A stretch of 64,000 bases of DNA, taken from contig CP064989.1 of the NCBI GenBank assembly GCA_016699875.1, positions 456,788 through 520,787 on the forward strand, given 5' to 3'. Below, piece after piece: positions 10,097 through 64,000 of this stretch. The position numbers were made by a program, and so were the translations under genes. This DNA comes from Candidatus Moraniibacteriota bacterium (GTDB lineage Bacteria > Patescibacteriota > Minisyncoccia > Moranbacterales > UBA1568). The notes beneath the pieces are model-generated. The model saw only the letters and a program-made list of their open reading frames with translations, was not told where the DNA came from and ran no database searches. The first letter of the stretch is position 1, and each line of letters starts with the position of its first letter.

Positions 10097-10209
10097 GGAT
10101 CCGGCAGAGGCAACACATTCCATGCCCAATTTCTTTGCAGGAAAGAATTCATTTCAAATTTCCCAACTTCCTGTCGTCAGTTGTTCATTGTAAGTTGTGA
10201 GTTAATCCT

Positions 10210-11589
10210 ATGCATCAAATATCCGAACTCAGCCAATTCTCAATCGAAGAGCTTACCAAAGTGGAAGGCGCTGCCGGACTCAATGTGTTTATCGAAAATG
10301 GAAAGGTGCAAAAAGTGGAATTCGCCATCAAAGAATTCAAGCGTTTCTACACGCACGCCATGGAAGGCAAACCGATCGCAGCGATTCCTCAGCTCCTTGC
10401 GCGCATCTGCGGTACCTGTTCGAACGCACACCTCGTCGCAAGCATCGAAGCCGTCGAGAAGACGCTCGGCATTGTTCCGAGCGAGCAGACCATGCTTCTG
10501 CGCACCCTTACCTATCATGGACTCATCATTCGCGATCATGCGCTCCACCTCTACCTCTTCTGTCTTCCCGACTTCTTCGGCAAAGACTCGCTCTTGGGAT
10601 TTGATGATGACGACCCCATACAACACCAGCTCCTCCATGACGCCTTCGCCGTGAAAGCCGCCGGCAACCACCTCGCAATCGCCGTCGCCGGGCGAAGCGT
10701 CCATGCGCCCCTCCCCATGCCCGGCGGCTTCGGAAAAACTCCCGATACGAAGTCCATCACTGAAGTCATCATCGAACTGGAAAACATTCGCCCGGCAGTG
10801 CTCCGCCTCATCAAAGTCTTTACCGACGATCCGTCATCACTCGTCCGAAAAAGCAACTACGCCGCCCTCCGCAACAGCAAATTTTCCTACCTCGAAGGCG
10901 ACCTCTGGGATATGAAAGGATTCGTCGTTGACGAGGCGGGCTATCGCGACCATCTAGAGCACGTTGTCCTGCCATACTCCCAAGCTTCCGCCTACACGTT
11001 CGACGGCGAAACCTACCGCGTCGGCGCGATCGCTCGACTCAACATCAATAGCTCCGGCCTCCACCCACGCACCAAACACGACGCCGCAGAGGCGATCGCA
11101 CTGTTCCCTTCCAACAATATCTTTCACAACAATCTCGCCCAGGCGATCGAAATCCTCCACTCCGTCGACGAAGCGATTGATCTCCTCAAACAGAAAACCT
11201 TCCAGCCCGAACCGCCACAGAAAATCGTCCCGAAAGCCGGCATCGGCGTAGGACTTGTCGAGGCGCCCCGTGGCGCGCTCTACCACAAGCTCGAAGTAAA
11301 CGACAAAGGCATCGTCGAGCGCGGCGAGGTCGTCGTCCCGACCGGTCAAAACCAGATCGCCATCGAACTCGACCTCATCCAATTCATCAATGAGCACATG
11401 GACATGGAGGAGTCCGCCATAAAACTCGAGTGCGAAAAAATAATCCGCGCCTACGACCCCTGCATGTCCTGCGGCGCCCACTTCCTCGAACTCAAAATGA
11501 GCACCAACGGCTCGAGGCTCAAAAAGGTAATTTCAAAGAAACAAGCCGCCAAAAGTGACCCACAAAAACATCTCCCACATCATCACTAG
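10210..11589 (+). CDS. [NiFe]-hydrogenase large subunit
   Basis: N-terminal L1 motif RICGTCSNAH (RxCGxCxxxH) and C-terminal L2 motif DPCMSCGAH (DPCxxCxxH), followed by a ~35 aa C-terminal extension, the usual substrate of the maturation endopeptidase. Confidence 0.9.
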   Translation: MHQISELSQFSIEELTKVEGAAGLNVFIENGKVQKVEFAIKEFKRFYTHAMEGKPIAAIPQLLARICGTCSNAHLVASIEAVEKTLGIVPSEQTMLLRTLTYHGLIIRDHALHLYLFCLPDFFGKDSLLGFDDDDPIQHQLLHDAFAVKAAGNHLAIAVAGRSVHAPLPMPGGFGKTPDTKSITEVIIELENIRPAVLRLIKVFTDDPSSLVRKSNYAALRNSKFSYLEGDLWDMKGFVVDEAGYRDHLEHVVLPYSQASAYTFDGETYRVGAIARLNINSSGLHPRTKHDAAEAIALFPSNNIFHNNLAQAIEILHSVDEAIDLLKQKTFQPEPPQKIVPKAGIGVGLVEAPRGALYHKLEVNDKGIVERGEVVVPTGQNQIAIELDLIQFINEHMDMEESAIKLECEKIIRAYDPCMSCGAHFLELKMSTNGSRLKKVISKKQAAKSDPQKHLPHHH

Positions 11590-12609: not shown

Positions 12610-13423
12610 AGGCGATGCTCTTCAATGTATATGCACGCAATCGAGCGACGGTTTGCTCCGAAAGCGTCTCGCACGGCACGCCCCAGTGAATCGACACCCA
12701 TGCGCCGGGCGCGAGCAAATCGATATCGATATCCGCGGAAAGATCGCGCACCAGCCGGCGAGAAACAGGGTGGCCAAGAAAAAACGCTCCGCGCTCATCG
12801 CGAACAAGCGGCTCCGTAACGACATCGATAAACGGCCCGGAAACGGCAGCAACCTTCCCCCAGCTCACGATGCACTCGGCAACCGCCGTCCAGTCACCAT
12901 CATGAAGCAACTCGTGATTTGTCTCACGCCACACATTGAGCACATGAAATGAGTGGTGTGGAAAACCGCCTCGCACCACCTTTTGCCCGATCGTGTCGAA
13001 TCGCTCCCGCCCCGTCTTTTTCTTCACCTCGAGCGCATCGAGCAATCCCAAATATTTTCTCGGTGAAAATGCGTCGAGCAAACGATTACCGATCCAATAT
13101 GCCTCGACCACCTTGTCATCAAACGGATCACGAATACCGTTCCCCTCCGCGATATGTGAGAGATACGGATAAAGATTTTGAAATCGCTCAAGGATAGCCG
13201 AAAGTCGCGGATCGCTCTCGCCCGCGTCCAAATATTCCTTCATCGTTTTGTTCGCGTCGGGCCCGCAGTAGTGCAGCCGATTCGGCCCGAATGCATACCG
13301 GCTGCATCGAAACACTCCATCCATATCTTTCCACTCTACGCGAACCCCAAAAAAAGCGCAAAAAACACGCCTAACCAGAAACCAGTTAGGCGCATGCCGA
13401 ATGCTAGAGTCAGACTGACGCAA
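12581..13423 (-). CDS. Hypothetical protein with conserved Cys/His clusters (CSRYAFGPNRLHYCGP; FPHHSFHVLNVW; HELLHDGDW)
   Basis: ORF track. Probable true start is the internal M at MDGVFRCSRY (~13324). No family recognised. Adjacent to, and co-oriented with, the putative hydrogenase protease. Confidence 0.4.
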   Translation of the reverse strand: MRQSDSSIRHAPNWFLVRRVFCAFFGVRVEWKDMDGVFRCSRYAFGPNRLHYCGPDANKTMKEYLDAGESDPRLSAILERFQNLYPYLSHIAEGNGIRDPFDDKVVEAYWIGNRLLDAFSPRKYLGLLDALEVKKKTGRERFDTIGQKVVRGGFPHHSFHVLNVWRETNHELLHDGDWTAVAECIVSWGKVAAVSGPFIDVVTEPLVRDERGAFFLGHPVSRRLVRDLSADIDIDLLAPGAWVSIHWGVPCETLSEQTVARLRAYTLKSIAFANAYERKK

Positions 13424-15736: not shown

Positions 15737-17647
15737 TCATTCTCCCGTAAGACTCTTGAGCAGAGCGCTAAGTCGCATCGATGCGACGCCGACCACGCGA
15801 TCAGCACCGCCATAATATATGAAGATTTTTCCGGCATGAAGCGTCGCACCGCAAGGAAAAACAACATTCGGAACAATGCCGACTTTCTCGTATTCCATTT
15901 CCGGCTCGAAAAGAGGCGAATCACTCCTTGCGAGCACGCGCTCCGGGTGATCGATATCGAGCAAGGCCGCGCCCAGCCGATACACCGACCCCTCGCTCGA
16001 AACACCGTGATACAAAAGAAGCCATCCGCGATCAGTCCGGATCGGAACCGTATTGAGTCCGATTTTTTGATCATCCCACATACCCTGCCTCGGCAGAATA
16101 AATGGGCTTTGCGATAACATCGATCCTCCGGAAAACTCCAGATCATCAAAGAAGTTAATGTCTATCGACGGTTGTATCCGATGAAGCACCACGTATTTCC
16201 CACGAATCTTCTCCGGGAAAACACAAGCGTCCTTGTCATCGATACCCGGTGGCGATATAAGCTTCGGCAATGTCCAACGATGCCACTGTTTCGCGAGAAA
16301 TTCTTTTCGCCCAAGAGAAGTAATCGCCACACGGGGAGCATTCGCCCCATCCACTGCCGTGTAGAACATAAAAATCGTATCGTCGATGCGTGTGAGTCGC
16401 GGGTCCTCGCATCCGGAATAGCCTCCGCCAGCCCGCATCTCAAAAGGCTCCCGCGGCACATAGGCCGGCTCCGAGCTTCGCTCGTCAATGGTCAAACCGT
16501 CACGGCTCGACGCATATCCAAAGACCGATGTATCGCCATTCGAAAGCGCGCGATACATAATATGCGTTCTCCCGCCATCCCGGATAACCCCCGGATTGAA
16601 TACTCCTTTCGCCTCCCAAGCATGCTCCGAAACAGGCGAGAGAACGGGATTCTTCGGAGCGCGCTCGAAGGAGAGTTTTCTGTTTGGATACGAAAGCGAC
16701 CGAAGCAACTTCTTCGCGTCACACGTGGCAACACAGCAAGTCGAGTCGGCTGCACCGTAGTAAAGAAACAATTTTCCACGACGAAGAATAGCTCCTGACG
16801 GAAAAACAATATTCGGAACCTTTCCATACAATTCATACTCTTCTTCGGGCACAAGAAGCGGCGCATCGGTCCTCGCAAGTATTTTTCGCGGGTCACTTCG
16901 ATCAAGGAGAACCGCCTCAATGCCGAATATCTTTCGCTCAGTAAAATAATTCCGTATATGCGAATAAATCAAAAGCCACCCGTCTTCCGTGAGGAGAGGT
17001 GAAGCACCGATCTCAACATGATCGGAATCGCCCCGTTGAAGTCGAATCTCATGCGCCGAAAGATTCGAATACCATGCATTCCAATATGCTTCGGACCATA
17101 TATCTTCAATGCTATCAAACAAAGCAAGCCCGATGGTGGATGGCGGACGATCGGTATTTGCCGTCAATATCGCCGCAAATTTCCCATTCACCTTCTCCGG
17201 GAAAAGCGTCATGGCTTTCGCATTGAAAGGCGTTACCAAGTGCTTCTCATCCACTCTTCGGAGATCTTTTGAAAGCGCTACCGCCACTTTTATTCCTTCT
17301 GCTGAAAACGGGTATGTCGAAAGCGCCGTATAGAAAATATAATAGGTTCCATCTATCGCTGTGACACGGGGATCCTCGCATCCGAATCGTTCCCATGATT
17401 CTTCAGGAAGAATAAATTGGCGATGTTTCTCAAAATGAATCCCATCAGCACTCATGGCACATCCGATCGAAGACACTTCATACGTTTCTCCTTCGTGCAG
17501 TACTCGCGACGACTGCGCCCGATACACCAGATCAATCCACTTTCCCCTCTGCACCGGACAGCCGTTAAACGCTGCGGATCGCTCCCAAAAATTTCCACTC
17601 TCCCCAACCAGAACCGGATTCTCATTCGATCGTTCAACTCGAATCAT
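15737..17647 (-). CDS. Double-module GH130 family glycoside hydrolase/phosphorylase (two tandem GH130 beta-propeller modules in one 636 aa protein)
   Basis: Two copies of GH130-like signatures: FNGCPV...GCEDPRVTAIDGTYYIFYTA, and GVFNPGVIRDGGRTHIMYRA...GCEDPRLTRIDDTIFMFYTAVDG...DKDACVFPEKI. Confidence 0.75.
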   Translation of the reverse strand: MIRVERSNENPVLVGESGNFWERSAAFNGCPVQRGKWIDLVYRAQSSRVLHEGETYEVSSIGCAMSADGIHFEKHRQFILPEESWERFGCEDPRVTAIDGTYYIFYTALSTYPFSAEGIKVAVALSKDLRRVDEKHLVTPFNAKAMTLFPEKVNGKFAAILTANTDRPPSTIGLALFDSIEDIWSEAYWNAWYSNLSAHEIRLQRGDSDHVEIGASPLLTEDGWLLIYSHIRNYFTERKIFGIEAVLLDRSDPRKILARTDAPLLVPEEEYELYGKVPNIVFPSGAILRRGKLFLYYGAADSTCCVATCDAKKLLRSLSYPNRKLSFERAPKNPVLSPVSEHAWEAKGVFNPGVIRDGGRTHIMYRALSNGDTSVFGYASSRDGLTIDERSSEPAYVPREPFEMRAGGGYSGCEDPRLTRIDDTIFMFYTAVDGANAPRVAITSLGRKEFLAKQWHRWTLPKLISPPGIDDKDACVFPEKIRGKYVVLHRIQPSIDINFFDDLEFSGGSMLSQSPFILPRQGMWDDQKIGLNTVPIRTDRGWLLLYHGVSSEGSVYRLGAALLDIDHPERVLARSDSPLFEPEMEYEKVGIVPNVVFPCGATLHAGKIFIYYGGADRVVGVASMRLSALLKSLTGE

Positions 17648-17691
17648 ATCGTTTCCATTTAGAAAAATCTTGAACGTCGAACACCTGCAAC

Positions 17692-19548
17692 CTACTCGTC
17701 CCCCAATTTCACATACCGTGTCGGCACTACCTTATTCGAATGAAGCAGCGCATCAAGCAACCGAGCAATCGGCACAGTCGCCACACACGTCACCGTATCG
17801 GCACTTCCATAGTATACAAAAAGTGTTTCATCCTTCACAACCGCCCCACAACTATAGACAATGCGAGGCTTTGTCCCCTCGTTTTCATACCACACCTTCG
17901 GTTCAAGAATTGCCGCCTTTGATCGGGCAATCACTTTCGTCGGATCCTTCTTATCAAGAATCATCGCTCCGAGTTTGTATCCGCAGTCCCGAGTTGTCGC
18001 ATGGTAGAGCACGAGCCACCCCTCTTTTGTTTTTATCGGCGACGGACCGACACCGCGCACAAGCAATTCCCATCGTCCCTTAAGTGGCGTCTTAACATGC
18101 TCGCTTTTGATAAAAGTCTCTCCGTCAAAATCGAGATTGTCGAGATAATCGATGCGCACTTCGGGGCTGATGCTATGAAGCACAGCAAACCTCCCGTGAA
18201 TTTTCTCGGGGAATATGGTCCAGTTTTTGTGAATTTCCCCAGGCGGCGAAATCATCACCGGGCGCGACCAATTCCATTTTTTCGCCAAAAAGTCATCAAC
18301 GGAAATCTTTGTAAGCGCCACTCGCGGAAAATTATACCCATCAAATGCAGTGTACGTCATATAGAGCGTATCCTCGATACAGGTCACTTTCGGATCCTCG
18401 CTTCCTCCCCATCCGCTACCGGAAGCATACGGCGTCGTACATGACTCTTGAATCCTCGTTACCTTCACATCATCGAGGGTTGGCGAAGAAACATAGATGG
18501 GCACATCAAGTCGCTCATGTATCGAGAAACCGTCACGACTATTGGCGTAGCCGACCGTCGACAAACCATTCTTTCCGATCGCACGGTAGAGAATATGCAC
18601 CATGCCATCATCAGAAAGGAACGCTGCCGGATTAAAGACCTCGCCCGCCTCCCAATCATACTCCTTTCGAGAAGCAAGAATGGGATTTCCCGCATAACGT
18701 TCGAGCTTCATGCTATCGGGAACAACGGACACCGAAGCATTTCTGGAAACTTTCCAAAATTGAGCGATTTCTTCCACAAACAGCTTCCCATCAACACTCC
18801 AATACACGAGGACTTTCTTCGCCCGCAAGACAGACCCGATATACCGCACATCCTTCCCAATCCACGAATCGGGAGACTCCCACAGAGCTTCCTCCGACCG
18901 CCAGAGAATCGTTTTCGGATTCTCTTTCTCTGCCAAAGCAGAACCGAGAAGCCATCGCCCATCATGAGTTTCGGAAGCGTACAGAAGAATAATTCCATTC
19001 CCGGCAGGAATCGCCGCCACAAGACGTATCGGCCCCTCGTCGAAATATCCTTCGCGAGGTTTCAAAATTGCCGAGCGCTTTATATTCCAATGTTTCAAAT
19101 CGGTCGATACTGCCAATTTCACAGTACGCTCGCCAAAGAAAAACCCATACTTTTCTCGCCCTGCTTGCAAAGAAACAACTCTTCCCGTCTCGCGCAAACC
19201 TTCTATGTCCGAGATATCGCTCCATTCAATGCCATCGGAAGAAAACCCTGATGCACTTCGAAAAGTACCATCACTTGTCTTTCTCTTACAAGAAAGAAAA
19301 AAAGAATCTTCCGCAGAAGAAATTTCCGAAATACAAAAAACATCCGAAATATCCGGACGCAGACGAAGACTCCCCAAAAGTCTCGTAAAAATAAACTCTT
19401 TCTGTATTGGCTCAAAGGAGATTCCGTCCAAACTACTCAGAACAGATATTGGCCGATTCGATTTCCCTTGGGAATCACGCACATAGAGATATACATTCTT
19501 CCCAACTGACGAAACTCCAAGAACCGAACGGTCCAGAGAACGCTCCAT
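17692..19548 (-). CDS. Second double-module GH130 family protein (paralogue of 15737..17647)
   Basis: EVFNPAAFLSDDGMVHILYRA...GSEDPKVTCIEDTLYMTYTAFDG...HKNWTIFPEKI, plus an N-terminal second module. 618 aa. Confidence 0.75.
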   Translation of the reverse strand: MERSLDRSVLGVSSVGKNVYLYVRDSQGKSNRPISVLSSLDGISFEPIQKEFIFTRLLGSLRLRPDISDVFCISEISSAEDSFFLSCKRKTSDGTFRSASGFSSDGIEWSDISDIEGLRETGRVVSLQAGREKYGFFFGERTVKLAVSTDLKHWNIKRSAILKPREGYFDEGPIRLVAAIPAGNGIILLYASETHDGRWLLGSALAEKENPKTILWRSEEALWESPDSWIGKDVRYIGSVLRAKKVLVYWSVDGKLFVEEIAQFWKVSRNASVSVVPDSMKLERYAGNPILASRKEYDWEAGEVFNPAAFLSDDGMVHILYRAIGKNGLSTVGYANSRDGFSIHERLDVPIYVSSPTLDDVKVTRIQESCTTPYASGSGWGGSEDPKVTCIEDTLYMTYTAFDGYNFPRVALTKISVDDFLAKKWNWSRPVMISPPGEIHKNWTIFPEKIHGRFAVLHSISPEVRIDYLDNLDFDGETFIKSEHVKTPLKGRWELLVRGVGPSPIKTKEGWLVLYHATTRDCGYKLGAMILDKKDPTKVIARSKAAILEPKVWYENEGTKPRIVYSCGAVVKDETLFVYYGSADTVTCVATVPIARLLDALLHSNKVVPTRYVKLGDE

Positions 19549-44829: not shown

Positions 44830-45546
44830 CTACAGACCGACAAACGGATCCTGTTTGGTGTCCTTCTTCTCGATACCATACCCGGCAAGTAGCGTCTCCA
44901 TCGCCTTCGTAAAGCTCGGCGTACCTACCAGGTAATAGATCGGGGCGCTTACCTCCGGAAGATATTTTTTGAGCATATCATCGCAAATGAATCCACGATC
45001 GGCATCCCACACACAAACCGACCGATCCGTCTCCGTCATGGTGAATACGGGGTGATACTGAATATTCGGAAACGTTTTCAATTCATCAAGAAATGGGGTA
45101 TCCTCAGGGCGATAATTCGAATAAAAAAGGAAAAATTCACGCGAATCGCCATCGTGGTTCGCCTGCCGCAAAATACTGCGTGCCGGCGTAATACCGATAC
45201 CGCCAACAAGAAAAGCAATCGGCCGCGAATCACCAGGAAGAAGTGTGAAATGCCCAATCGGGGCGCCGACCAGCATTTCGTCACCCGGGACAAGCTGAGC
45301 GATTGTTTGCTTGTATCCACTCTCAGATACCCGCATAGCAAAGAGGAGATGATCTTCATAGGGTGCCGACGCAATTGACATACAGCGATTCGCACCCCGC
45401 GAATCCTCCGCTGCCAGTTTTGGAACCGAAAGCACGCTGTATTGCCCCGCTTCAAACGAAAACCCTGCCGGCTTCTCAAGCTTTATCGCAAGCGTTTTCT
45501 CTGCAATTTCCGAAATTTCGAGCACCTTTGTTGAAAATGTTTGCAT
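44830..45546 (-). CDS. FNR-like FAD/NAD(P)-binding oxidoreductase (ferredoxin-NADP reductase family, no Fe-S domain)
   Basis: FAD-binding RxYS-like (RCMSIAS), GAPIGHF, NAD-binding FLVGGIGITP. Start refined to MQTFSTKV at 45546, because the longer ORF-track frame would overlap tRNA-Pro. Confidence 0.7.
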   Translation of the reverse strand: MQTFSTKVLEISEIAEKTLAIKLEKPAGFSFEAGQYSVLSVPKLAAEDSRGANRCMSIASAPYEDHLLFAMRVSESGYKQTIAQLVPGDEMLVGAPIGHFTLLPGDSRPIAFLVGGIGITPARSILRQANHDGDSREFFLFYSNYRPEDTPFLDELKTFPNIQYHPVFTMTETDRSVCVWDADRGFICDDMLKKYLPEVSAPIYYLVGTPSFTKAMETLLAGYGIEKKDTKQDPFVGL

Positions 45547-45581
45547 ATTTCCGAACCAACAAGTAACACATCTTTTCTCTG

Positions 45582-45652
45582 TCGGGCCGCTGGGAATCGA
45601 ACCCAGTCTACATGCTCCCAAAGCACGCGTACTACCGGTATACGACGGCCCG
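45582..45652 (-). tRNA. tRNA-Pro (anticodon UGG), no encoded CCA
   Basis: Hand-folded: acceptor CGGGCCG/CGGCCCG, anticodon stem CGUGC/GCAUG with loop UUUGGGA (G37), T-arm ...GGGUUCGAUUCCC..., discriminator A. 71 nt. Confidence 0.8.
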
Positions 45653-45698
45653 AACCTTCCTATCACCTCTCCGACTTTTCCAGAGTACCAGCGAGTCC

Positions 45699-45728
45699 GA
45701 AAAAGCACAAATCCCCCGGAAGGGGGAC
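45699..45728 (-). terminator. Intrinsic terminator after HU
   Basis: TCCCCC-ggaa-GGGGGA hairpin with an A-rich tract on the plus strand (U-tract on minus) 3' of the HU stop. Confidence 0.55.
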
Positions 45729-55015: not shown

Positions 55016-55399
55016 ATCGTTGTGAATACACAATTATTCTGACAAAAAGCTAACATTCAAAATCCTATTTCTACTATCTTTACTATCTTCTTCATCAAAA
55101 AAGGCTCGCTCACGCGAACCCGTCCCACTTCACCCAAAAACTTACCCTTAAAATATAGCACCAATTCGAAGCCATGTCAAATTGCACCGAGCGCTGCCAC
55201 ACTCCAAGCAGCCCCCAGAAACACCCATAAGAAAGCCTCCTATTCCTCCAAGAAAAGCCGCCAAATAACATTGACATTTTGCAATAGATATGCTACATTT
55301 GAAGGCCACAACATATTCAGCCTTTCTTCTAGAAAGAGGGTGCTGTGAAATGAATAAGTGGTGAAACTCTTTAACAACTCAAGAAAAAGGTGGTGTCAG

Positions 55400-56167
55400 A
55401 TGGCTGAAAGAACACTATTCGGCATCAATATCGCAGAGCTTCTCAGTCTTGGACTGGACACTCTCACATGGCGAGCTCTCGGCATGAGAGTTCACGGGTC
55501 ACCAAAGGGGAGCACCAATAGTTCTGGAGATGGATCAAGCGGAACCGAAACGCAGAAAAGAGACCGTGTCGCCTTCGGATTCCTTTCAACAAAGGATGAG
55601 GAAAGATATGGGGAACTATGGCAAGCATTGGGCATACAGGAACAAAGGGCTCTTATTAGACTCAAGGAGAGTCTTCTCGCAGGGTTAGCGCCAGACATTT
55701 CAAATGGACTGGTTGCAAAGGCAGTCAGAGATCACCTATGGGATGGTCTTCGCAAAAAGATCACCAATATGGAAGTCTCTACTGTAAGCACAGAGGAAAA
55801 CGTCTCTGACGATCCGCAGACAGGCAAGAAACGAGTCGGAAAGAAAACGACCCGGCAAGAAAGCAAAGGGCTATTATACCTCAAATGGCTCGCGGGAATC
55901 GTCATCATGTATGGAACCGCGGAGGCGAAAGAACATCTCCGAACCGGAAACATGATTCCCGATGAAGCACCCTTCTTGTGGATTGCCACACATCTCTCGC
56001 CATCCAGTCTCGCAGAATTGAATCAGCATCTCCGCGGGAACGCACAGACAAAGATGGCTCTCCAGGAGGAACGAGGAAAAACTACCGAGACACTGCGATG
56101 GATCGGTATTGGAGCCTTCATTGCGGTTATCATTCTGATTGTTTCTATCGCCACTGGCACTAAGTAA
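55400..56167 (+). CDS. Hypothetical protein with C-terminal TM anchor
   Basis: Start MAERTLFG with GGTGG RBS. Putative -35 TTGACA at ~55271. Single C-terminal helix WIGIGAFIAVIILIVSIA. Confidence 0.5.
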   Translation: MAERTLFGINIAELLSLGLDTLTWRALGMRVHGSPKGSTNSSGDGSSGTETQKRDRVAFGFLSTKDEERYGELWQALGIQEQRALIRLKESLLAGLAPDISNGLVAKAVRDHLWDGLRKKITNMEVSTVSTEENVSDDPQTGKKRVGKKTTRQESKGLLYLKWLAGIVIMYGTAEAKEHLRTGNMIPDEAPFLWIATHLSPSSLAELNQHLRGNAQTKMALQEERGKTTETLRWIGIGAFIAVIILIVSIATGTK

Positions 56168-56182
56168 AGAGGAGACCGTATC

Positions 56183-57331
56183 ATGTGGGATCAACTGGAA
56201 ATCGCATCGGAACGAGTGAAGCGGCTCGTATGGCTGTTTCTTGCATTCCTAATAACAGCTCATATCATAGCCATCTTCTTTGTCTACATGAAGATGCAGA
56301 CCCTCATACCGATACTTGCAATCATTTCGGCATTCATCACGATTGCACAAGCCGCCAGGCTCAAAATATGGCTCGCCAGCGCCGGAGCAGGTATTGCCTT
56401 CGGACTTCTTCCTATCGCTCAGACAGCAAGAAGTGTCGGCGACTTTTCTCTCTGGGCATGGAAATCCATTACGCACGTTGCCCTCGGAACAAGCCTGGCA
56501 CTCTTCCTCATAGCTGAGATTCCCTGGAACGGAGATGCATCGCTAGCACTTGAGTTCGATACCGCGCTGATGATACTTGCCCTCGTAGCTCTCACCTACA
56601 TAGAGCGAGAGGTCGTATGGTATCCCACATTGGTTCGAAGCCTCATTGGATTCGTCATTGCAATCATCCTGATAAGCGTATTTCTCGGCATAGCCTATCC
56701 GGAAGCAAGCAAGGTGGAAAGATGGTGGAAATTCCTCGAATTTGCGAAAGATCACTGGCTCGGAATCCTCATCACCATCGGAGCAATCATCTTTCTCTGG
56801 AAAATCAAAGGGGCGCACATCACAGCCATTCCAGGATGGATCTTCATCCTTGCACTCATCCTCGCTGTAGGAGCGGCACTAATCTACGCCTACCGTGACT
56901 GGGATTCCGTGAAGCATGGCGCGAGGGAAGTGCAGGGATTCCTCAACAAGGCAACATCGAGAAACGTTGAATTCTCTCGTGTCGAAACTGTGTCAGTGAA
57001 AGCGGCGGGTCGCGGATACTTCGTTCTCACTGTACATCCAGACCAGCTGACCTATTGGGGCACATGTGGAAATGGTCGAAAACTGCACGGAATAGCCGTG
57101 AAGAATGATGAAACCAGAGCTATGCACGGCGCCGATGTAAACCTTGATCGAGGAAACATCGTTATAGGATCAGGAAGTGGTCAAGCATCAAGACACCAAG
57201 ATCTGATCTACATCGAAGATGAGAGTGCACCACTCTCTGTATACCTGGATTTCCCAGGAGAGAACCCATCGAGGTGCAAAATAGACAGATTGCTCAAAGC
57301 TACGCTGTATTTTACGCCAAAGGACGTATAA
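56183..57331 (+). CDS. Hypothetical polytopic membrane protein (~8 TM) with C-terminal soluble domain
   Basis: ORF track. Multiple hydrophobic helices. No family recognised. 16-nt gap from the preceding gene (operon). Confidence 0.55.
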   Translation: MWDQLEIASERVKRLVWLFLAFLITAHIIAIFFVYMKMQTLIPILAIISAFITIAQAARLKIWLASAGAGIAFGLLPIAQTARSVGDFSLWAWKSITHVALGTSLALFLIAEIPWNGDASLALEFDTALMILALVALTYIEREVVWYPTLVRSLIGFVIAIILISVFLGIAYPEASKVERWWKFLEFAKDHWLGILITIGAIIFLWKIKGAHITAIPGWIFILALILAVGAALIYAYRDWDSVKHGAREVQGFLNKATSRNVEFSRVETVSVKAAGRGYFVLTVHPDQLTYWGTCGNGRKLHGIAVKNDETRAMHGADVNLDRGNIVIGSGSGQASRHQDLIYIEDESAPLSVYLDFPGENPSRCKIDRLLKATLYFTPKDV

Positions 57332-57354
57332 ACACGCAGCGAACGCAACAACAA

Positions 57355-57398
57355 ACGGACGGAAGCCTTAGCTCCCGTCCGATTTTTTATTTTTTTAT
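57355..57398 (+). terminator. Intrinsic terminator (GGACGG...CCGTCC plus long T-tract) separating the convergent 56183..57331 and pilin-like array genes
   Basis: Read directly. Confidence 0.55.
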
Positions 57399-57426
57399 TG
57401 CGATATTCCAGAACACAAAAGCCACT

Positions 57427-58536
57427 CTACGTGCTAGCAAAGAAAGATGCAAGTTGTCGCACGATAACCAGCGAGGCAAGCGCCACCACGACGCCAAGGA
57501 GTGCATAGGTGACAATCTTTTTCCCGGTCGTGATGCGATCCTGACTCCCTGCCGCCATGAGAAACATCACCCCGCCCACAACGAGCATAATGATCGAGAG
57601 CGTCCCCACGATACCCAAGAGGAAATTCAATACCGAGAGCAATATATCTGCCGCACTCCGTGCATTTGATACTTCCGATGGCAACGCCGCCGTCGAGTTC
57701 CACCCCAAAACCGTAGCGATTTCCTTGAGAAAGGTCGGCGCGAGTATCCCAATCGCAAGCCCAATTAAGGCTGCCGTAATCGCTGTTTTCGCCATGGTCA
57801 CCCGCCCTTGATTGCCAGCCGACGTGATATAGAGCACCGCCCCGATCACAATGAAGACGAGTGACAAAACGACGATCACGCCCTGCAATGCATAGAGCAA
57901 TGCCATCAAGACCTGCTGCACGGTATTGTATTTCAGAGGATTCACCAGTGAAATATTCACCACCTGCCCCGCCGTTCCGCCCCCAGATCCACCAGTTGTC
58001 GAATTAGAAACACAGTAAAGAGGTTTTGTACTATCTTTCGTTGCACAGTCTTCAGAACATTTGGTGTCACCTTGCTTTTCCGTAGACGAATCACAACTTG
58101 CTTTACATGTTCCTCCGGTACAAGTAGAGGATGTCGTAGAGGTAGTAGAGGTAGTAGAGGTAGTAGAGGTAGTAGAGGTAGTAGAGGTAGTAGAGGTAGT
58201 AGAGGTAGAGGTGCCTGAACAATACTTCGTGCCACTCGGACACAAGTGACTTGTACACCAAGTATCACCTTCTCCACTGCTTCCGCAGTCTGACTTACAC
58301 TTCTCATTGAAATTAGAACATCGTGACGCTGACTTACTATCAGTACAGGCGCTCAAAGCACAGCTACTCTCGGCTTTGCACCCATTTGTTACTTCGATAT
58401 TACCATTATGGGAACAATCATAACCAGTAACATTGCAAAATACAGCGCTACATTCTGCAAAAACAGGCGTACTTACAAAAAATACACTCCATATGGCCAC
58501 CAATAATGCTCCTCCGAACTGTGGGGATTTTTTCAT
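57427..58536 (-). CDS. Pilin-like array member A: signal peptide, Cys-rich ectodomain, (TST)n linker, second Cys-rich segment, then TWO tandem TrbC/VirB2-like 2-TM pilin modules
   Basis: SP MKKSPQFGGALLVAIWSVFFVSTPVFA. >25 Cys. TSTTSTTSTTS... Pilin modules ...LYITSAGNQGRVTMAKTAITAALIGLAIGI... and ...MFLMAAGSQDRITTGKKIVTYALLGVVVAL... Confidence 0.65.
   Translation of the reverse strand: MKKSPQFGGALLVAIWSVFFVSTPVFAECSAVFCNVTGYDCSHNGNIEVTNGCKAESSCALSACTDSKSASRCSNFNEKCKSDCGSSGEGDTWCTSHLCPSGTKYCSGTSTSTTSTTSTTSTTSTTSTTSTTSTTSSTCTGGTCKASCDSSTEKQGDTKCSEDCATKDSTKPLYCVSNSTTGGSGGGTAGQVVNISLVNPLKYNTVQQVLMALLYALQGVIVVLSLVFIVIGAVLYITSAGNQGRVTMAKTAITAALIGLAIGILAPTFLKEIATVLGWNSTAALPSEVSNARSAADILLSVLNFLLGIVGTLSIIMLVVGGVMFLMAAGSQDRITTGKKIVTYALLGVVVALASLVIVRQLASFFAST
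58125..58212. repeat. 9-bp tandem repeat (GAGGTAGTA)n, ~9 units, encoding the (TST)n linker of member A
   Basis: Read directly: gaggtagtagaggtagtagaggtagta... Confidence 0.8.
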
Positions 58537-58633
58537 AATTACTTCACTTCATATGCTCTACTAAAACAAAAGGGGACAGAACAATCTATGCTATTTCCTC
58601 TTTTTCCATTACGGTCCCAGTGAACAACTATTC

Positions 58634-59455
58634 TCACCCGCCCCATGCTGTCGCTCGCAAGAGCGAGTCTATCGCGATAAGAATCACGAGCCCTGAAAGC
58701 GCGATGATCACGCCGATAATCGAATAGTTCATATTCCGCTTTGCCGTCTCGATCATATTCATATTTCCCGCCGCCGAGAGATATTGGATACCGGAAATCA
58801 CAAATGCGATAATCGCCAGGAATCCGAAAAGATAGAGCATCCATTTCATGAGATTGATGATAATGCTGGCGACCGACACTTCCGAAAGTCCCGTATTGAT
58901 CGGGAAGCACACCCCGGCATATTCCTTGAATTTCGTCGTATCACACTTCTCTGTCGTCGACGTAGTTGTGGTTGTTGTCGTCGTTGTCCCACTTCCGGAC
59001 CCACAGCACATCGTCTTGCCATTCGTATTTGCCGAACACGTCGCACTTGTCCCAAGGTTTGACCCACTACCCGGGCAAGCTCCGCTCACCGGAGTCTGAC
59101 ACGTCCCTGATCCGCCCGACGCACACGGATCCGTCGTTGTAGAGGTTTTGCAATACTTTGTCCCCGTTGGACAAGCAGCTAATGAACAGGCAGCGTCCTC
59201 CCCATTGGCACAACTTACCGCACATTGCGTATTAAAATTTGGGCAACTTGCCACAAAAGAACTCGGAATACACGCTTTCTCGGAGCAATTCAATTCTGTC
59301 TTGCAGGCATTAGTAACTTCTTGTTGCGTCCCGCAGGAAGACATGCACGTCACCTCACGGCATGCAGCAGATACAGAGTTAACACCCAACGACAGAATAA
59401 ATCCCAGTGCCACAAAAGACAGCACCAACGATTTCAAAAGAAACTTTTTTTTCAT
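58634..59455 (-). CDS. Pilin-like array member B: signal peptide, Cys-rich ectodomain, poly-Thr linker, one C-terminal pilin module
   Basis: Start refined to MKKKFLLKSLVLSFVALGF. TTTTTTTTTSTT. Module IQYLSAAGNMNMIETAKRNMNYSIIGVIIAL. Confidence 0.65.
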   Translation of the reverse strand: MKKKFLLKSLVLSFVALGFILSLGVNSVSAACREVTCMSSCGTQQEVTNACKTELNCSEKACIPSSFVASCPNFNTQCAVSCANGEDAACSLAACPTGTKYCKTSTTTDPCASGGSGTCQTPVSGACPGSGSNLGTSATCSANTNGKTMCCGSGSGTTTTTTTTTSTTEKCDTTKFKEYAGVCFPINTGLSEVSVASIIINLMKWMLYLFGFLAIIAFVISGIQYLSAAGNMNMIETAKRNMNYSIIGVIIALSGLVILIAIDSLLRATAWGG

Positions 59456-59492
59456 ATGCAAGAAAAAATCCGCATCACACAAGAGACATTCG

Positions 59493-59786
59493 CTAAAACT
59501 GTGTTCCGGCACTCAGCCACGTATCAACCGCGAGAACAACCACATACCCGACAAGCGCCACAATCACACCGATGATAGACCACTTCATGGCCTCCTTGGC
59601 TGTTTTCACCTGACCGTCGTTTCCGGCCGCGGTGAGATACATAATACCCGAAATCACAAAGCCGATAATGGCGATGAAGCCAAGGACCGCAAGAAGCCAA
59701 TCCATGGTCCCTGCGATGATGTCGTAAATAGGCGCATCGGGCAAAAGTGATTGATCGCCACCTTCGAAATAGGGTTTGTCTCCCAT
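59493..59786 (-). CDS. Pilin-like array member C: headless pilin (no signal peptide, no ectodomain; 97 aa)
   Basis: ...LAVLGFIAIIGFVISGIMYLTAAGNDGQVKTAKEAMKWSIIGVIVALVGYVVVLAV... Confidence 0.6.
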   Translation of the reverse strand: MGDKPYFEGGDQSLLPDAPIYDIIAGTMDWLLAVLGFIAIIGFVISGIMYLTAAGNDGQVKTAKEAMKWSIIGVIVALVGYVVVLAVDTWLSAGTQF

Positions 59787-59810
59787 ACGAGTAAAGCTAA
59801 AGAAAATAAA

Positions 59811-60641
59811 TCACGAACCGCGTAGCAAGAAATCCGCCGCCAAGATAATCACATATCCGACAAGTGCCACGACAACGCCCACGATAGACCATGTCATCGC
59901 TGTTTTCGCCGCCTTGATCTGTCCGTCATTCCCCGCCGCGGTGAGATACATAATACCGGAAATCACAAAGGCGATGATGGCGATAAACCCGAGAATCGTG
60001 AGAAGCCACGTCATAAATCCCGACACAATAGTCGCAACGGAAGAACTCGGCAACTCGGATTCGGATTTGACACTTTGAAGTCCCGATGTCCACCCGCCGC
60101 TCGTACTCGAAGAATCATTGGAAGAGCTTGTAGTATTACCGGTTCCTGAAGTAGTCTCGCTCGTCGGCTTACAGCAGTATCGTCCGGTCCCGCACGCATC
60201 ATCCCGACTACTCAAATGTTCATATCCCGTCCCGCCGCACGTGCTCGAAGCGGAGCAGAAATAGTTCGTCCCTGCGCTCGTGCAAGCATTCGTTGTCGAA
60301 CTCCCGCCACTCGTCGTACAGCAATCCGGCGTGGCACTCAGACAATCCGAACTGGTATGCACATACGTTCCCGTCGGACAAGAGAGCGACGCCGCACACG
60401 TCCCCGAACTTCCATTGTCAGACGCTGTACAAGCCGCACCGGCATTTCCCGTCGGGGTGGTACTGCCCTGACAGCAATACCGGTTTGGACAATTGTCATC
60501 GAGATTCCAATTCCCCGAACACGCCGCCGGATCGGATACGCAGTTCCCTCCCGAACACGTCTGCGCCCCGGCAGACGGAACAAAAAAAGCTCCTGCAAAG
60601 AAGAAAACTGACAACCCAAAAAGTTTCAGTCCGAATTTCAT
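59811..60641 (-). CDS. Pilin-like array member D: signal peptide, Cys-rich ectodomain, S/T-rich linker, pilin module
   Basis: SP MKFGLKLFGLSVFFFAGAFFVPSAGA. 20+ Cys. Module IMYLTAAGNDGQIKAAKTAMTWSIVGVVVALVGYVI. Confidence 0.65.
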   Translation of the reverse strand: MKFGLKLFGLSVFFFAGAFFVPSAGAQTCSGGNCVSDPAACSGNWNLDDNCPNRYCCQGSTTPTGNAGAACTASDNGSSGTCAASLSCPTGTYVHTSSDCLSATPDCCTTSGGSSTTNACTSAGTNYFCSASSTCGGTGYEHLSSRDDACGTGRYCCKPTSETTSGTGNTTSSSNDSSSTSGGWTSGLQSVKSESELPSSSVATIVSGFMTWLLTILGFIAIIAFVISGIMYLTAAGNDGQIKAAKTAMTWSIVGVVVALVGYVIILAADFLLRGS

Positions 60642-60823
60642 GAACTCAGTATATCACAATCACTGAAAACTCGAAAAAATACCACCTCTGTCAAGCGCCA
60701 GATTTACTCGAGCTCATATCTCCCACTCCCTATTTTCCATCTTCTGCACATTTCCAACTCCAAACCAAAACGCCCCCGACAGTATGCCGGAAGCGCCTTT
60801 GGAAAGAAACCTTCGAAGAATTC

Positions 60824-61204
60824 CTAAATACTCGAGTTCGAACTCGCATTGAGCCACGAATCCACCGCGCTCACGATCACATACCCGATAAGCGCTACGA
60901 TAACACCGATAATGGAAGCGGTCAGAGCGCTCTTGGCACTACCTATACGCTTTTCATCTCCCGCAGCGGTGAGGTACATGATACCGGCGATCACAAACCC
61001 GACGATCGCAATGAAGCCCAAGATTGCGAGGAGATAATTCATCGTCGTGTGAATGATGTCATATATGCTCGCATTCGGCGTCCCGCCACTCTGCGCATTG
61101 CTATCCCCGGCAGACCACTGTCCGAACGCCACCATCGGAACCGTCACAAACGTCGCGATAAGCGCAAACGCCCCGATATTCTTCAAAATGAGTGATTTTT
61201 TCAT
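60824..61204 (-). CDS. Pilin-like array member E: signal peptide, short ectodomain, pilin module (126 aa)
   Basis: Start refined to MKKSLILKNIGAFALIATFVTVPMVAFG at 61204 with AAGGAGGTGA RBS. Module IMYLTAAGDEKRIGSAKSALTASIIGVIVALIGYVIV. The longer ORF-track N-terminus reads through hairpin repeat copy 2 (WIPAFAGMT artefact). Confidence 0.65.
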   Translation of the reverse strand: MKKSLILKNIGAFALIATFVTVPMVAFGQWSAGDSNAQSGGTPNASIYDIIHTTMNYLLAILGFIAIVGFVIAGIMYLTAAGDEKRIGSAKSALTASIIGVIVALIGYVIVSAVDSWLNASSNSSI

Positions 61205-61262
61205 AGTAATTCTCTCACCTCCTTTCTGTTTTTGATAAATTATCAATTCCTCCCCCTCCCTC

Positions 61263-61296
61263 GTCATTCCCGCGAAGGCGGGAATCCAGGTTCCAC
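61263..61296. repeat. Hairpin repeat family copy 2 (GTCATTCCCGCGAAGGCGGGAATCCAGGTTCCAC)
   Basis: Read directly. 3' of the GIY-YIG gene stop. Confidence 0.75.
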
Positions 61297-61351
61297 TCGC
61301 TTCCACAGAAACACACACAAGATTTTCCCAACAAGACTCCATTCTCAATTT

Positions 61352-61636
61352 TCACAATTCATCGTATAAATCTCTCCACTTCGGATTTTTTTCTTCAATA
61401 AGTCGGATTTTCCACAGACGATTCCACTTTTTCAACTGTTTCTCTCTTTGAATAGCGCCAATAACACTTTCTCCTTGTTCATAATACACCAAAATATTCG
61501 CATCGTATTTTTCCGTAAACCCGGGAACTACTTTGTTTTTATGCTGCCAAACTCTTCCTTGCAAATTGGAAGTGACGCCGATATACAAGGTCCCATTTCT
61601 CTTACTTGCCAGCATGTACACACAGGGAGATTTCAT
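61352..61636 (-). CDS. Small GIY-YIG nuclease-domain protein (YhbQ/UPF0213-like, 94 aa)
   Basis: VYMLASKRNGTLYIGVTSNLQGRVWQHK...EQGESVIGAIQREKQLKKWNR matches the GIY-YIG pattern. Confidence 0.75.
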   Translation of the reverse strand: MKSPCVYMLASKRNGTLYIGVTSNLQGRVWQHKNKVVPGFTEKYDANILVYYEQGESVIGAIQREKQLKKWNRLWKIRLIEEKNPKWRDLYDEL

Positions 61637-61673
61637 GAAATTCTGTTCGATTTCCGGAAATTCTGAAGTTTTG

Positions 61674-61706
61674 CGGCAACTGGATTCCCGCCTTCGCGGG
61701 AATGAC
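61674..61706. repeat. Hairpin repeat family copy 3 (inverted orientation: GGATTCCCGCCTTCGCGGGAATGAC)
   Basis: Reverse complement of copies 2 and 4. Abuts the stop of 61714..61983. Confidence 0.75.
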
Positions 61707-61713
61707 GGGGACT

Positions 61714-61983
61714 CTATTCAAAAAACTTTGCCATAGCTCGAACCAGCACCAACGCTCCCAAACCAATCGCTATGCCAATAACCGCCCATGAAAACGACTT
61801 CTTCGCCATATCGAGCCTTGCCGAACTGCCAGCAGCCGTAAAGTACAAAATCCCCGAAAACACTAGCGCCAGTATAACAACAAATCCAAACACCGCCAAC
61901 AAAAAGTCAAGCACACGAAAGAGCACCATCGCCACCGTCGGCGCATCATCAATCACTCCGGCAGCATGAGCAATAGGAATCAT
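61714..61983 (-). CDS. Pilin-like array member F: headless pilin (89 aa)
   Basis: ...LLAVFGFVVILALVFSGILYFTAAGSSARLDMAKKSFSWAVIGIAIGLGALVLV... Confidence 0.6.
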   Translation of the reverse strand: MIPIAHAAGVIDDAPTVAMVLFRVLDFLLAVFGFVVILALVFSGILYFTAAGSSARLDMAKKSFSWAVIGIAIGLGALVLVRAMAKFFE

Positions 61984-62081
61984 AGAACACGTGTAGACAT
62001 TCGATGAGCCGAGATAAAAAGGCTAATTCTCTCCCATTATTATTCTCACTCGCCATTTTCGTCACTCCTTCTCCCTGCTTC

Positions 62082-62105
62082 GTCATTCCCGCGAAGGCGG
62101 GAATC
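62082..62105. repeat. Hairpin repeat family copy 4
   Basis: GTCATTCCCGCGAAGGCGGGAATC. 3' of the stop of 62164..62868. Confidence 0.75.
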
Positions 62106-62163
62106 TACGCCCTGCCAGAAGGAGAATCCAACCGAATGAATCAAAAAGTTCTCGAAAAAATAG

Positions 62164-62868
62164 CTACAACCCGTACCGCTTATTCCGCGCACGCAATCGA
62201 ATAAGCACAACGACACCAACACTGATTAATACCACTGCAATACCACCCACAATCACCAGAATGGAACCAGCTCCATTGTTCGCCATTGCCGTTCCGCCAG
62301 TCGAGGCGACTGCGCTCGCCTGCATACCACGCAGCACTACCTCTCCCGATTTCGGATCCCGAAGCACGTCATTATTCTGCTTGAGCAACTTTTTTGTTTC
62401 ATCACTGAAACTTCCGGAAATACAATCGGAAAGGCAGGTCAGTAACGTTTCGCCTTTTTCAAACTCACAAATGTTATCTGCATTGCACTGCACAAAATCT
62501 GCAAGAGACCCTTCAAGAAGCAATGCTCCGCTTCCCACAGAATAAATTTTATACCCATTCACAATACCAAAATGCGGAAACTCATATGAAAATTTACCCT
62601 TCTTTCCGGAGAATTCGTACTTAACCGCACTGGCTCCGGTAACATCAGAAAACTCTATACGATACTCCCCACGAACAACCTCCTGAGAAAATGCAACAAC
62701 CGAGAAATTCGGATCACTTTCTAAGACAATAGCTGGAGATTGCTGCGAATCAAGCCTGAGATTCCCATCCTGACTCTCAAAATGGAACACCAGAACGTCT
62801 TCCGCACGCGCAGAAGACGCAAATGCAAAAAATGTAACTACCACCAAACAGAAGACCAAAGACTTCAT
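62164..62868 (-). CDS. Secreted beta-rich surface protein with signal peptide, one Cys pair and C-terminal TM anchor (not pilin-like); embedded in the array
   Basis: Start refined to MKSLVFCLVVVTFFAFASSARA. C-terminal GSILVIVGGIAVVLISVGVVVLIRLRARNKR. Confidence 0.55.
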   Translation of the reverse strand: MKSLVFCLVVVTFFAFASSARAEDVLVFHFESQDGNLRLDSQQSPAIVLESDPNFSVVAFSQEVVRGEYRIEFSDVTGASAVKYEFSGKKGKFSYEFPHFGIVNGYKIYSVGSGALLLEGSLADFVQCNADNICEFEKGETLLTCLSDCISGSFSDETKKLLKQNNDVLRDPKSGEVVLRGMQASAVASTGGTAMANNGAGSILVIVGGIAVVLISVGVVVLIRLRARNKRYGL

Positions 62869-62899
62869 ATGATAGACGCTGGGAGAAACCTCAAACACA

Positions 62900-63997
62900 T
62901 CAAGACTTACAGCTCTTATAATATGTTTCCACACGATCACAGTAGCGATTTGTTGTACGGGCACAGTTATTCGGTTTACCGCTATTATAACACGAGGCGA
63001 CATTACGAATATCCATTCCACACCGACCAGCATTATCTTTTATAAGCCATGCTGCACAGTTAACATCCAGCTGCACATCATTTTGAATCTTCGTGCATGA
63101 CTCCGACGCCGATCCGGTAATTCCACATTTCGCACGAATAGCAGGAAGTGCCTGCGAATAGCCACAGGAACCATACCCATCAGTAGAAAGACTTTTGTTA
63201 CAACCCTCACCCGCATCAATGATTGCCATTACAATATCCGCCTCCACGTTGGAAGCATTGCTTTTTGTTGCACTTGATACATCTTGCTTATTCGCACACT
63301 TTCCATCCTTGCAATTCAAGTTCCCACCAGAACCGGTCGACGTCTCGCTTCCACTAGATGCTCCGTTTACCCCCGTTCGTGTATATTTTGATTTCGCGTC
63401 ACAACTATACGTAAACCACGATCCGTTTGTTTTAAAAGAAAACGTCGCCGTATCCGTCCCAAGTGCGCCGTCCGCCAAAACCATAAGGATCACATTGATC
63501 GCTACCCACCCCAGGAGCACGATGGCAAATCCGTAGAGCGCCGCTTTGATACCGCTTTTGGCAATACCGATCATCTGAGTATTCCCTGCGGAAATAATAT
63601 AGAAAATGCCCATCGCCACCAGTACCGCAAAGGCGATATAGGTCATCACGGTAAAAATCCAACTCGTGATATTCTTCATGAGCAAAAACAGGTGGCACAG
63701 AGTGCAAATCGCCGTTTCGTCATCAGGTGTCGTTGGGTCGTCGCAAGACCGTCCACACGGAACTATCCCCGCATTCTGAGATCCCGAACAATAACTCCCG
63801 CTCCCACCAGTAGTATTTTCACAATAATAGTACTCTCCTGATGTCCCATAATGAGATTTGCATTCTGCTGCACAGAATGAGTTGTTATTACCTTGCTCAC
63901 ACGCCGTTGTTGAACACTTTGACATATCGCACGATTCCCCAGCTACCGCCGTATAGCAACATGCCACACTGCCAGTGCATCCCGTTGCACCTGTCAA
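62900..63997 (-). CDS. Pilin-like array member G: large Cys-rich ectodomain plus pilin module; N-terminus probably continues beyond the window end
   Basis: No signal peptide in the in-window N-terminus. Frame open to the window edge. Module IFYIISAGNTQMIGIAKSGIKAALYGFAIVLLGWVAIN. >30 Cys. Confidence 0.6.
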   Translation of the reverse strand: MTGATGCTGSVACCYTAVAGESCDMSKCSTTACEQGNNNSFCAAECKSHYGTSGEYYYCENTTGGSGSYCSGSQNAGIVPCGRSCDDPTTPDDETAICTLCHLFLLMKNITSWIFTVMTYIAFAVLVAMGIFYIISAGNTQMIGIAKSGIKAALYGFAIVLLGWVAINVILMVLADGALGTDTATFSFKTNGSWFTYSCDAKSKYTRTGVNGASSGSETSTGSGGNLNCKDGKCANKQDVSSATKSNASNVEADIVMAIIDAGEGCNKSLSTDGYGSCGYSQALPAIRAKCGITGSASESCTKIQNDVQLDVNCAAWLIKDNAGRCGMDIRNVASCYNSGKPNNCARTTNRYCDRVETYYKSCKS

Positions 63998-64000
63998 GGC

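Follow-up and report, generated by a model that had tools for sequence, protein, structure and literature searches.

A chromosomal array of PF18895 pilin-family genes with modular Cys-rich heads and a predicted transglycosylase fusion in a Moranbacteria genome

The 64,000-nt window analysed here (contig CP064989.1 of a metagenome-assembled genome (MAG) of a Candidatus Moraniibacteriota bacterium, positions 456,788 to 520,787; coordinates below are those of the window) ends in a run of seven minus-strand open reading frames (ORFs), g1 to g7, which extend from 57427 to the window end and together hold eight copies of one two-helix tail module. The hairpins formed by these modules belong to the Pfam family PF18895, T4SS_pilin. 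We suspect, with a probability of about 0.55, that the locus is a chromosomal PF18895 pilin array whose products would be built into a filament by a type IV secretion system (T4SS), with the head-bearing members as minor subunits and with wall cleavage as the task of g7.

Homologues of the encoded proteins are named Candidatus Moranbacteria or Moraniibacteriota (Patescibacteria, class Paceibacteria), and two proteins of the locus are 100% identical to database entries, g4 to IPK84_02570 and u2, encoded by a gene convergent on the array, to IPK84_02545. Because the host belongs to the Patescibacteria, the episymbiont lifestyle that an earlier sequence-only reading of this DNA had named as the condition for a host-attachment role is plausible.

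Results

That reading had claimed seven minus-strand genes sharing a two-helix tail behind variable heads. The architecture of variable head and conserved tail stands, and the genes and their common tail are recovered both by the ORFs and by a hidden Markov model (HMM) built from the eight modules, which matches only these seven ORFs in the window. A hydropathy scan taken together with the motif describes the module as a hairpin of ~70-80 aa, in which a first hydrophobic helix is followed by a short basic loop, (I/V)x(Y/F)(L/I/F)x(A/S)AG-x4-(I/V/L)-x2-(A/G)K, and by a second hydrophobic helix. The paralogous tails are 22-65% identical to each other, and V31, A41, G42, K51 and G60, the last at the start of the second helix, are invariant in their alignment.

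The identity of the tail as a T4SS pilin, proposed from the two-helix layout, is supported by Pfam, with PF18895 above its curated gathering threshold of 26.6 bits in six of the seven genes (g1 64.1, g2 26.9, g3 37.1, g4 30.7, g5 32.0 and g6 31.1 bits) and just under it in the seventh. In g7 the hairpin reaches 22.2 bits with PF18895 and 88 bits with the tail HMM, and several g7 orthologues exceed the Pfam threshold (e.g., P0022 with 27.2 and P0042 with 30.3 bits). Some homologues carry the NCBI name 'pilin'. AlphaFold2 (AF2) models g3 as a hairpin of two helices, at residues 20-52 and 57-96 (predicted local distance difference test, pLDDT, 79). Fold searches with this model gave unspecific matches, and a search of PDB sequences with the tail profile returned noise only.

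Several tails also match the NCBIfam model NF045849 below its cut-off of 40 (g3 36.9, g4 36.2, g1 28.6 and g5 21.8 bits). This model describes the Mbov_0395-family pilin of Mycoplasma integrative and conjugative elements (ICEs), which is likewise a small two-helix protein of monoderm (MPF_FATA-type) conjugation; the window members differ in scoring under the 40-bit cut-off and in lacking an ICE context at the locus. The literature states that MPF_FATA systems have no VirB2 homologues, and the sub-threshold matches of the g1, g3, g4 and g5 tails bear on that statement.

The layout of the array departs from the earlier description at several points. The conserved module had been placed at the C-terminus throughout, but in g7 it is central and followed by ~190 aa. 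Rather than one hairpin per gene, g1 holds two, since the tail HMM matches residues 201-282 and again residues 289-369, and PF18895 likewise covers two stretches. Five Cys-rich heads had been counted, of which four were found; g5 has only ~20 Cys-free residues before its hairpin. N-termini that resemble signal peptides (basic, hydrophobic and with an AxA-type site, as read by eye) begin g1, g2, g4, g5 and the full-length orthologues of g7. The two members reported as headless and devoid of a signal peptide, g3 (59493) and g6 (61714), are indeed so, and neither ORF can be extended upstream. Judged by its sequence, g5 appears to be the most VirB2-prepilin-like member of the array.

For comparison we used related contigs, namely L002 and L003 (both from ENA), L004 (CP064974.1, complete), L005, L007 (CAYQPQ010000006.1), L008 (CAZETL010000017.1), L009 and L010 (CP064994.1, complete). 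The order g7-x-g6-g5-g4-g3-g2-g1, where x is a gene outside the pilin family and g1 is the double-hairpin form, is the same in L002, L004, L005, L007, L008 and L010, while L009 has a reduced version of the locus. Given this fixed order, the array is expected to end at g7, just past the window. In the relatives it is flanked on one side by infB and solute-binding-protein genes and on the other by one or two convergent genes and then nusA. The double hairpin of g1 is kept in L002, L004, L005, L007, L009 and L010. Contigs L007 and L008 come from MAGs titled 'uncultured Bdellovibrionales bacterium' and hold this Moranbacteria-type pilin locus with the same flanks; an error of labelling or binning is probable.

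Between the window and L004 the hairpins are 81-95% identical (95% for the g3 tail), and the corresponding values for housekeeping proteins are 88% for NusA, 88% for trigger factor and 94% for pyrophosphatase. By this comparison the hairpins are conserved at the level of housekeeping proteins. In genomes that are only ~80-88% identical in NusA, every paralogue is matched one to one by an orthologue in the corresponding place, and the paralogues are therefore old and individually maintained rather than recently amplified.

The heads behave differently. The head of g1 consists of a 10-Cys module of the g2 type, a (TST)n linker and a membrane-proximal 6-Cys module, and that of g2 of a 10-Cys module, a 6-Cys module and a poly-Thr linker. 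The heads had been described as having no obvious similarity to each other, but g1 and g2 have homologous N-terminal modules (47% identity over 59 aa, E 2e-14), and the 6-Cys module (C..C..C..C..CC, ~30-40 aa) is common to g2, which has one copy, and g4, which has three, at residues 29, 71 and 120. Against these four copies, 2000 shuffles gave 0.07 on average and never more than 2, and the module is found again in orthologues of g1, g2 and g7. The g4 head, searched against 1.84 billion representative proteins, retrieved its own orthologue cluster only, so that no known domain can be assigned to it.

Head turnover between relatives, suggested earlier as a comparative check, is borne out by identities of 9-38% (across the g1 and g2 heads and the g4 head against L002) as opposed to the 81-95% of the hairpins. 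Compared with L004, the g1 and g2 heads are 24-38% identical and the g4 head is 70% identical, whereas g4 of L002 is a protein of 139 aa without Cys. The distal 10-Cys module of the window g1 matches the g2 heads of the window, L004, L005 and L007 (36-48% identity) and none of the g1 heads of the relatives. Such a pattern would reflect transfer or duplication between neighbouring paralogues, and suggests that a head module has moved or been duplicated between g1 and g2. The (TST)n linker of g1 is encoded by a 9-nt tandem repeat, which the g1 orthologues of L002 and L004 lack and whose length could change in frame by slippage. Across these comparisons the heads undergo fast replacement and shuffling of modules.

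Divergent paralogues with tails 22-65% identical, rapid turnover of heads with modules moving between neighbours, and an in-frame 9-nt repeat in the g1 linker are also what might be seen if the genes were an antigenic or host-range repertoire, that is, alternative major subunits expressed singly in order to evade recognition by a host or by phages. The idea is raised by Quinonero-Coronel et al. 2025 (PMC12102498), and the VirB2 paralogues in Bartonella and Anaplasma have been suggested to vary in this way. The arrays of Bartonella and Anaplasma phagocytophilum (as described via PMC12102498) are likewise tandem and divergent, and are proposed to broaden or vary the interaction with host surfaces; unlike the genes in the window, they encode classical diderm VirB2 proteins without added domains and lie in or near virB operons. 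We consider a singly expressed repertoire distinctly improbable in our case, because every paralogue has its positional orthologue, because a repeat search of the window found no invertible segments or silent cassettes, and because promoter-like sites are no commoner than in shuffled sequence. The same scan found terminator counts no higher than in shuffled sequence, and only the hairpin after g1, past the last gene of the array, looks meaningful.

The most unusual member is g7, which is still open at the window edge (the codon before 63997 is GCC, with no stop). Its complete form is taken from full-length relatives (P0002, P0003 and P0015), as the gene is cut; these measure 499-587 aa, and in them a signal peptide leads into a Cys-rich head (230-400 aa), behind which come the hairpin and finally a C-terminal domain. 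Of the ~190 aa that follow the hairpin, the last ~150 are predicted to fold as a lytic transglycosylase. The AF2 model made from an alignment of 21 such C-terminal domains (pLDDT 93.5) has a lysozyme-like or SLT fold. In all 21 domains the pair G47-E48, which follows a helix at 37-47, is invariant, and CGYSQ and CYNxG are almost invariant; we take the latter two to resemble the SLT motifs GLMQ and AYNxG. The Pfam SLT model PF01464 scores 13.2 bits on the whole protein and 15.7 bits on the domain, both under its cut-off of 21.3, and matches at E<1 in only 4 of the 21 homologues. Sequence and profile searches of the PDB with this C-terminus gave nothing but noise.

About one third of the g7 homologues carry another C-terminal domain, with weak matches to PF18896, 'lysozyme like'. 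The clearest exchange is seen in P0020 (510 aa), which is 93% identical to g7 over a hairpin block of 135 aa and unrelated to it in both flanking domains, with a weak PF18896 SLT_3 match at the C-terminus in place of SLT. From the sequence and the model we infer that g7 is a VirB1-like predicted wall hydrolase, anchored by a pilin hairpin, in which both head and enzyme are exchangeable. According to the literature, the VirB1 function is missing from most Patescibacteria with VirB2 homologues; a predicted transglycosylase that falls below the Pfam SLT cut-off could help to explain this seeming absence. In the canonical systems examined, a lytic transglycosylase gene directly precedes virB2, which parallels the position of g7 at the head of the array.

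Small proteins with two transmembrane (TM) helices beside an SLT-fold domain could also be read as a lysis cassette of the prophage type, with holin-like proteins and a transglycosylase endolysin. This is hardly credible here, as the matches are to PF18895 and not to holin families, seven paralogues have secreted heads among them, the enzyme is fused to the hairpin behind a signal-peptide-led head in the full-length orthologues, and the infB-nusA synteny is fixed in many genomes with no phage genes. We rejected the holin-endolysin reading on this genomic context.

Table 1. Coordinates of the array genes, their mapped parts and the elements in and around the array
Feature	Position	Strand	Description
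g1	57427..58536	-	369 aa; signal peptide, Cys-rich head, two tandem PF18895 hairpins, 4 TM helices
9-nt tandem repeat	58109..58225	-	codes for the (TST)n linker of the g1 head; 9 copies, 9-nt spacing
g2	58634..59455	-	273 aa, start at the MKKKF methionine; signal peptide, Cys-rich head, one hairpin
g3	59493..59786	-	97 aa; headless pilin without signal peptide
g4	59811..60641	-	276 aa; signal peptide, three 6-Cys modules, Ser/Thr-rich linker, one hairpin
g5	60824..61204	-	126 aa; signal peptide, ~20-aa Cys-free N-terminus, one hairpin
g6	61714..61983	-	89 aa; headless pilin without signal peptide
g7	62900 to beyond 64000	-	cut by the window edge; central hairpin
g7 C-terminal domain	62903..63349	-	disulfide-rich, predicted SLT/lysozyme-like fold; candidate catalytic Glu 63206-63208
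g7 central pilin-like hairpin	63461..63709	-	PF18895 22.2 bits, tail HMM 88 bits
g7 Cys-rich head	63710..64000	-	cut by the window edge; full-length forms in relatives
Terminator-like hairpin	57356..57381	-	11-bp stem with 8 GC pairs; past the last array gene, between convergent genes
Inserted element	61259..61710		outside the pilin system; GIY-YIG gene between 36-nt inverted palindromic arms
GIY-YIG gene	61352..61636	-	94 aa; PF01541, 56 bits
x	62164..62868	-	non-pilin; signal peptide, ~190-aa ectodomain, 4-Cys motif, C-terminal TM helix, short basic tail
u2	56183..57331	+	polytopic membrane protein with C-terminal soluble domain; convergent on the array

Other elements lie within and beside the array (Table 1). 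The GIY-YIG gene and the three hairpin repeats reported amid the pilin genes are both present. The palindrome TCATTCCCGCGAAGGCGGGAATC sits in both inverted arms that flank the GIY-YIG gene, and its third exact copy lies at 62062-62105 in the spacer between x and g6, which is 180 bp long here and 20 bp in L004. Three exact palindromic repeats in the window compare with 0 expected by chance; a degenerate copy was found at 8197-8219. In L004 the g6-g5 spacer (12636-12722) is ~85 bp long and has one palindrome copy and no GIY-YIG gene, which suggests that ~430 bp with the gene were inserted into or next to a palindromic repeat that was already there. Folded as RNA, the palindromic repeats are not stabler than shuffled sequences (z -0.6 to -1.7).

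Gene x, which starts at 62868 (MKSLVF...), encodes the surface protein with signal peptide and C-terminal TM anchor described earlier; its orthologues in L002, L004 and L005 measure 232-240 aa and sit in the corresponding place. On the other side of the array, two genes (u1 and u2, 55358-57331) are convergent on it, as had been noted. No family match was found in Pfam or NCBIfam for x, u1 or u2. A polytopic convergent membrane protein of ~440 aa is encoded in L004, L007 and L010; u2 is weakly similar to the 443-aa protein at this position in L004 (24% over 190 aa, E 7e-6), the ORFs of L007 and L010 are u2-like, and the homologues of u2 carry no annotation. Proteins x (in all full loci) and u2-like (in most) are lineage-restricted envelope proteins whose position is conserved with the array, and we regard x and u2 as candidate accessory factors of the pilin system.

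The rest of the window is occupied by housekeeping genes (NusA, pyrophosphatase, trigger factor, ClpP, iPGM, RNase Y, PBP1, ThrRS and DnaG), together with ABC/MacB/HlyD components, GH130 enzymes and glycosyltransferases. Adjacent ORFs at 9509-11589 match the small (Oxidored_q6) and large (NiFeSe_Hases) subunits of NiFe hydrogenase in this Patescibacteria genome. At 15737-19548, two tandem genes for proteins of ~620-640 aa have a C-terminal GH130 (mannoside phosphorylase) domain and long N-termini without family assignment. A tRNA-Pro(TGG) gene at 45581-45652 falls within the 5' end of ORF 44830-45708 (NAD_binding_1), so that the true start of this gene lies further downstream.

Discussion

Arrays of this family have been described before, which is at odds with the earlier claim that such a cluster had not been described as a system. 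In PMC12102498, 3,035 Patescibacteria genomes were searched with PF18895, PF04956 and CONJScan profiles. VirB4 was found in 2,417 of these assemblies and VirB2-like pilins in 1,948 of the VirB4-positive ones (near virB4 in 1,135), and the PF18895/VirB2 arrays, each with 2-11 genes and on average 25% identical, numbered 441 in 383 assemblies; two Moranbacteria assemblies are flagged 'Yes' for VirB4. The same paper links the arrays to the 'Sec secreted array' of TM7x and to the essential pilin array of Candidatus S. epibionticum. Wang et al. 2023 (PMC10633639) reported that a series of pilins inside the T4SS cluster of Candidatus Southlakia epibionticum is essential; a 2025 review calls this set a six-pilin array with the 'potential to elaborate conjugative pili'. 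Given these two studies, the novelty of the array as such is not supported.

The published definition of an array (2-11 genes, in tandem or with one-gene gaps, of low identity and in Patescibacteria; PMC12102498) fits the locus in the window. Both are chromosomal tandem sets of divergent PF18895 paralogues, sometimes with one non-pilin gene between them, with and without signal peptides, in a patescibacterial host (PMC12102498 and PMC10633639). The window array differs in lying between infB and nusA rather than beside virB4, and in having four Cys-rich heads of 100-400 aa, one double hairpin and one fusion to a lytic-transglycosylase fold. We found no mention of modular Cys heads, a double hairpin or a hairpin-lysozyme fusion in the available portions of these two papers or in a full-text literature search. 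The locus adds undescribed architectural features to a known system and is not a new category.

Starting from the gene order, the hairpin family and the modelled fold of g7, we propose a topology, a filament, a role for the heads, an activity and target for the enzyme and a dependence on a T4SS. In this scenario, each protein would enter the cytoplasmic membrane as a helical hairpin, with the basic loop (AAG-x4-(I/V/L)-x2-AK) in the cytoplasm and both termini outside, and the hydropathy and charge of the hairpins agree with this N-out/C-out topology. The head-bearing members would use Sec signal peptides, and g3 and g6 would reach the membrane with no such peptide. A T4SS whose genes lie at another place in the genome (for VirB4, VirB3/PrgI-like and VirB6-like proteins) would then extract g3, g5 and g6 into a surface filament, which g1, g2 and g4 would join as minor subunits, and their disulfide-rich, Thr/Ser-linked heads could contact the host cell. 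The hairpin of g7 would hold the lytic transglycosylase at the envelope in the role of VirB1, opening the peptidoglycan and possibly the wall of the host as well.

Known systems offer partial parallels for g7. In virB1-virB2-virB3 of Agrobacterium and other MPF_T systems, the transglycosylase gene likewise directly precedes the pilin gene or genes, and the pilin is a hydrophobic hairpin of two helices behind a signal peptide, a layout that the window members with signal-peptide-like N-termini resemble. The window differs in that the transglycosylase fold is fused to the pilin-like hairpin, no virB3 or virB4 follows and the host is monoderm. TraG of pIP501, PrgK and TcpG (described in part in PMC12102498) are likewise membrane-anchored SLT-type proteins of monoderm T4SSs; their anchor is one TM helix at the N-terminus, and many of them contain a CHAP domain as well, whereas g7 has a pilin-family hairpin as its anchor, an N-terminal Cys-rich head and a disulfide-rich SLT domain that scores below threshold.

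Several observations weigh against a T4SS-built filament. Pfam searches of the window ORFs found no VirB4, VirB6, VirB3 or VirD4 (ORFs of at least 150 aa that look like genes were covered, excluding alternative-frame ORFs that overlap longer assigned ones), which agrees with the earlier remark that no assembly ATPase is encoded there, and no VirB4-size ATPase or T4SS core gene lies within 10 kb of the locus in eight related contigs, including L002, L004, L005 and L007 to L010. The direct link of the tail to classical TrbC/VirB2 pilins is weak. No array protein matches PF04956 (TrbC/VirB2) at E<=1, a further difference from the Agrobacterium type, and an hhalign comparison of the window family with five authentic VirB2/TrbC proteins from annotated plasmids gave a probability of 26% (E 7e-4, 34 columns), although in a sensible register that spans the pre-helix and the first TM helix. 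One distant homologue, P0113, bears PF18895 and PF04956 together. To our knowledge, neither domains on both sides of the hairpin, as in g7, nor a covalent double hairpin, as in g1, is known in a VirB2-type filament. According to the 2025 review, no filament of the PF18895 family has been visualised.

These observations could instead mean that the PF18895 hairpin is mainly a two-pass membrane anchor or docking module for extracellular domains, with neither filament nor T4SS involved. Such an anchor would account for the ectodomains on both sides of the g7 hairpin, for g1 as a four-TM double hairpin, and for P0020, whose conserved hairpin block between two exchanged flanks is what a cassette holder would look like; it would also be in keeping with the lack of T4SS genes near the locus in any genome examined and with the inconclusive fold and profile links to true pilins. 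Even so, we think it rather unlikely, though not negligible. A plain anchor needs neither invariant A41, G42, K51 and G60 nor conservation at the level of housekeeping proteins, and the headless g3 and g6 (97 and 89 aa) anchor nothing, yet are the best conserved members. Moreover, the family lies inside the T4SS clusters of many Patescibacteria (near virB4 in 1,135 of 1,948 assemblies) and is essential there, according to PMC12102498 and PMC10633639. We therefore keep the T4SS-built pilin array as the preferred interpretation.

A bolder and quite doubtful extension of that interpretation is that in Moranbacteria the PF18895 hairpin serves as a universal incorporation tag, by which a monoderm epibiont would load its conjugative-type pilus with interchangeable cargo, namely the modular disulfide-rich heads for binding and a lytic transglycosylase or lysozyme. 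If this were true, one filament would recognise the host and at the same time bear the enzyme for breaking through its wall, and such a plug-in system would have left its mark in the flank swap of P0020 and in the head modules that move between paralogues. It would also supply the VirB1 function reported to be missing from most VirB2-bearing Patescibacteria.

Among uncultivated bacteria, Patescibacteria account for a large share; they apparently live attached to hosts, and the T4SS with its pilin array is among the few systems shown to be essential for this way of life. The shuffled Cys-rich heads, which differ even between close relatives, are candidate determinants of host specificity.

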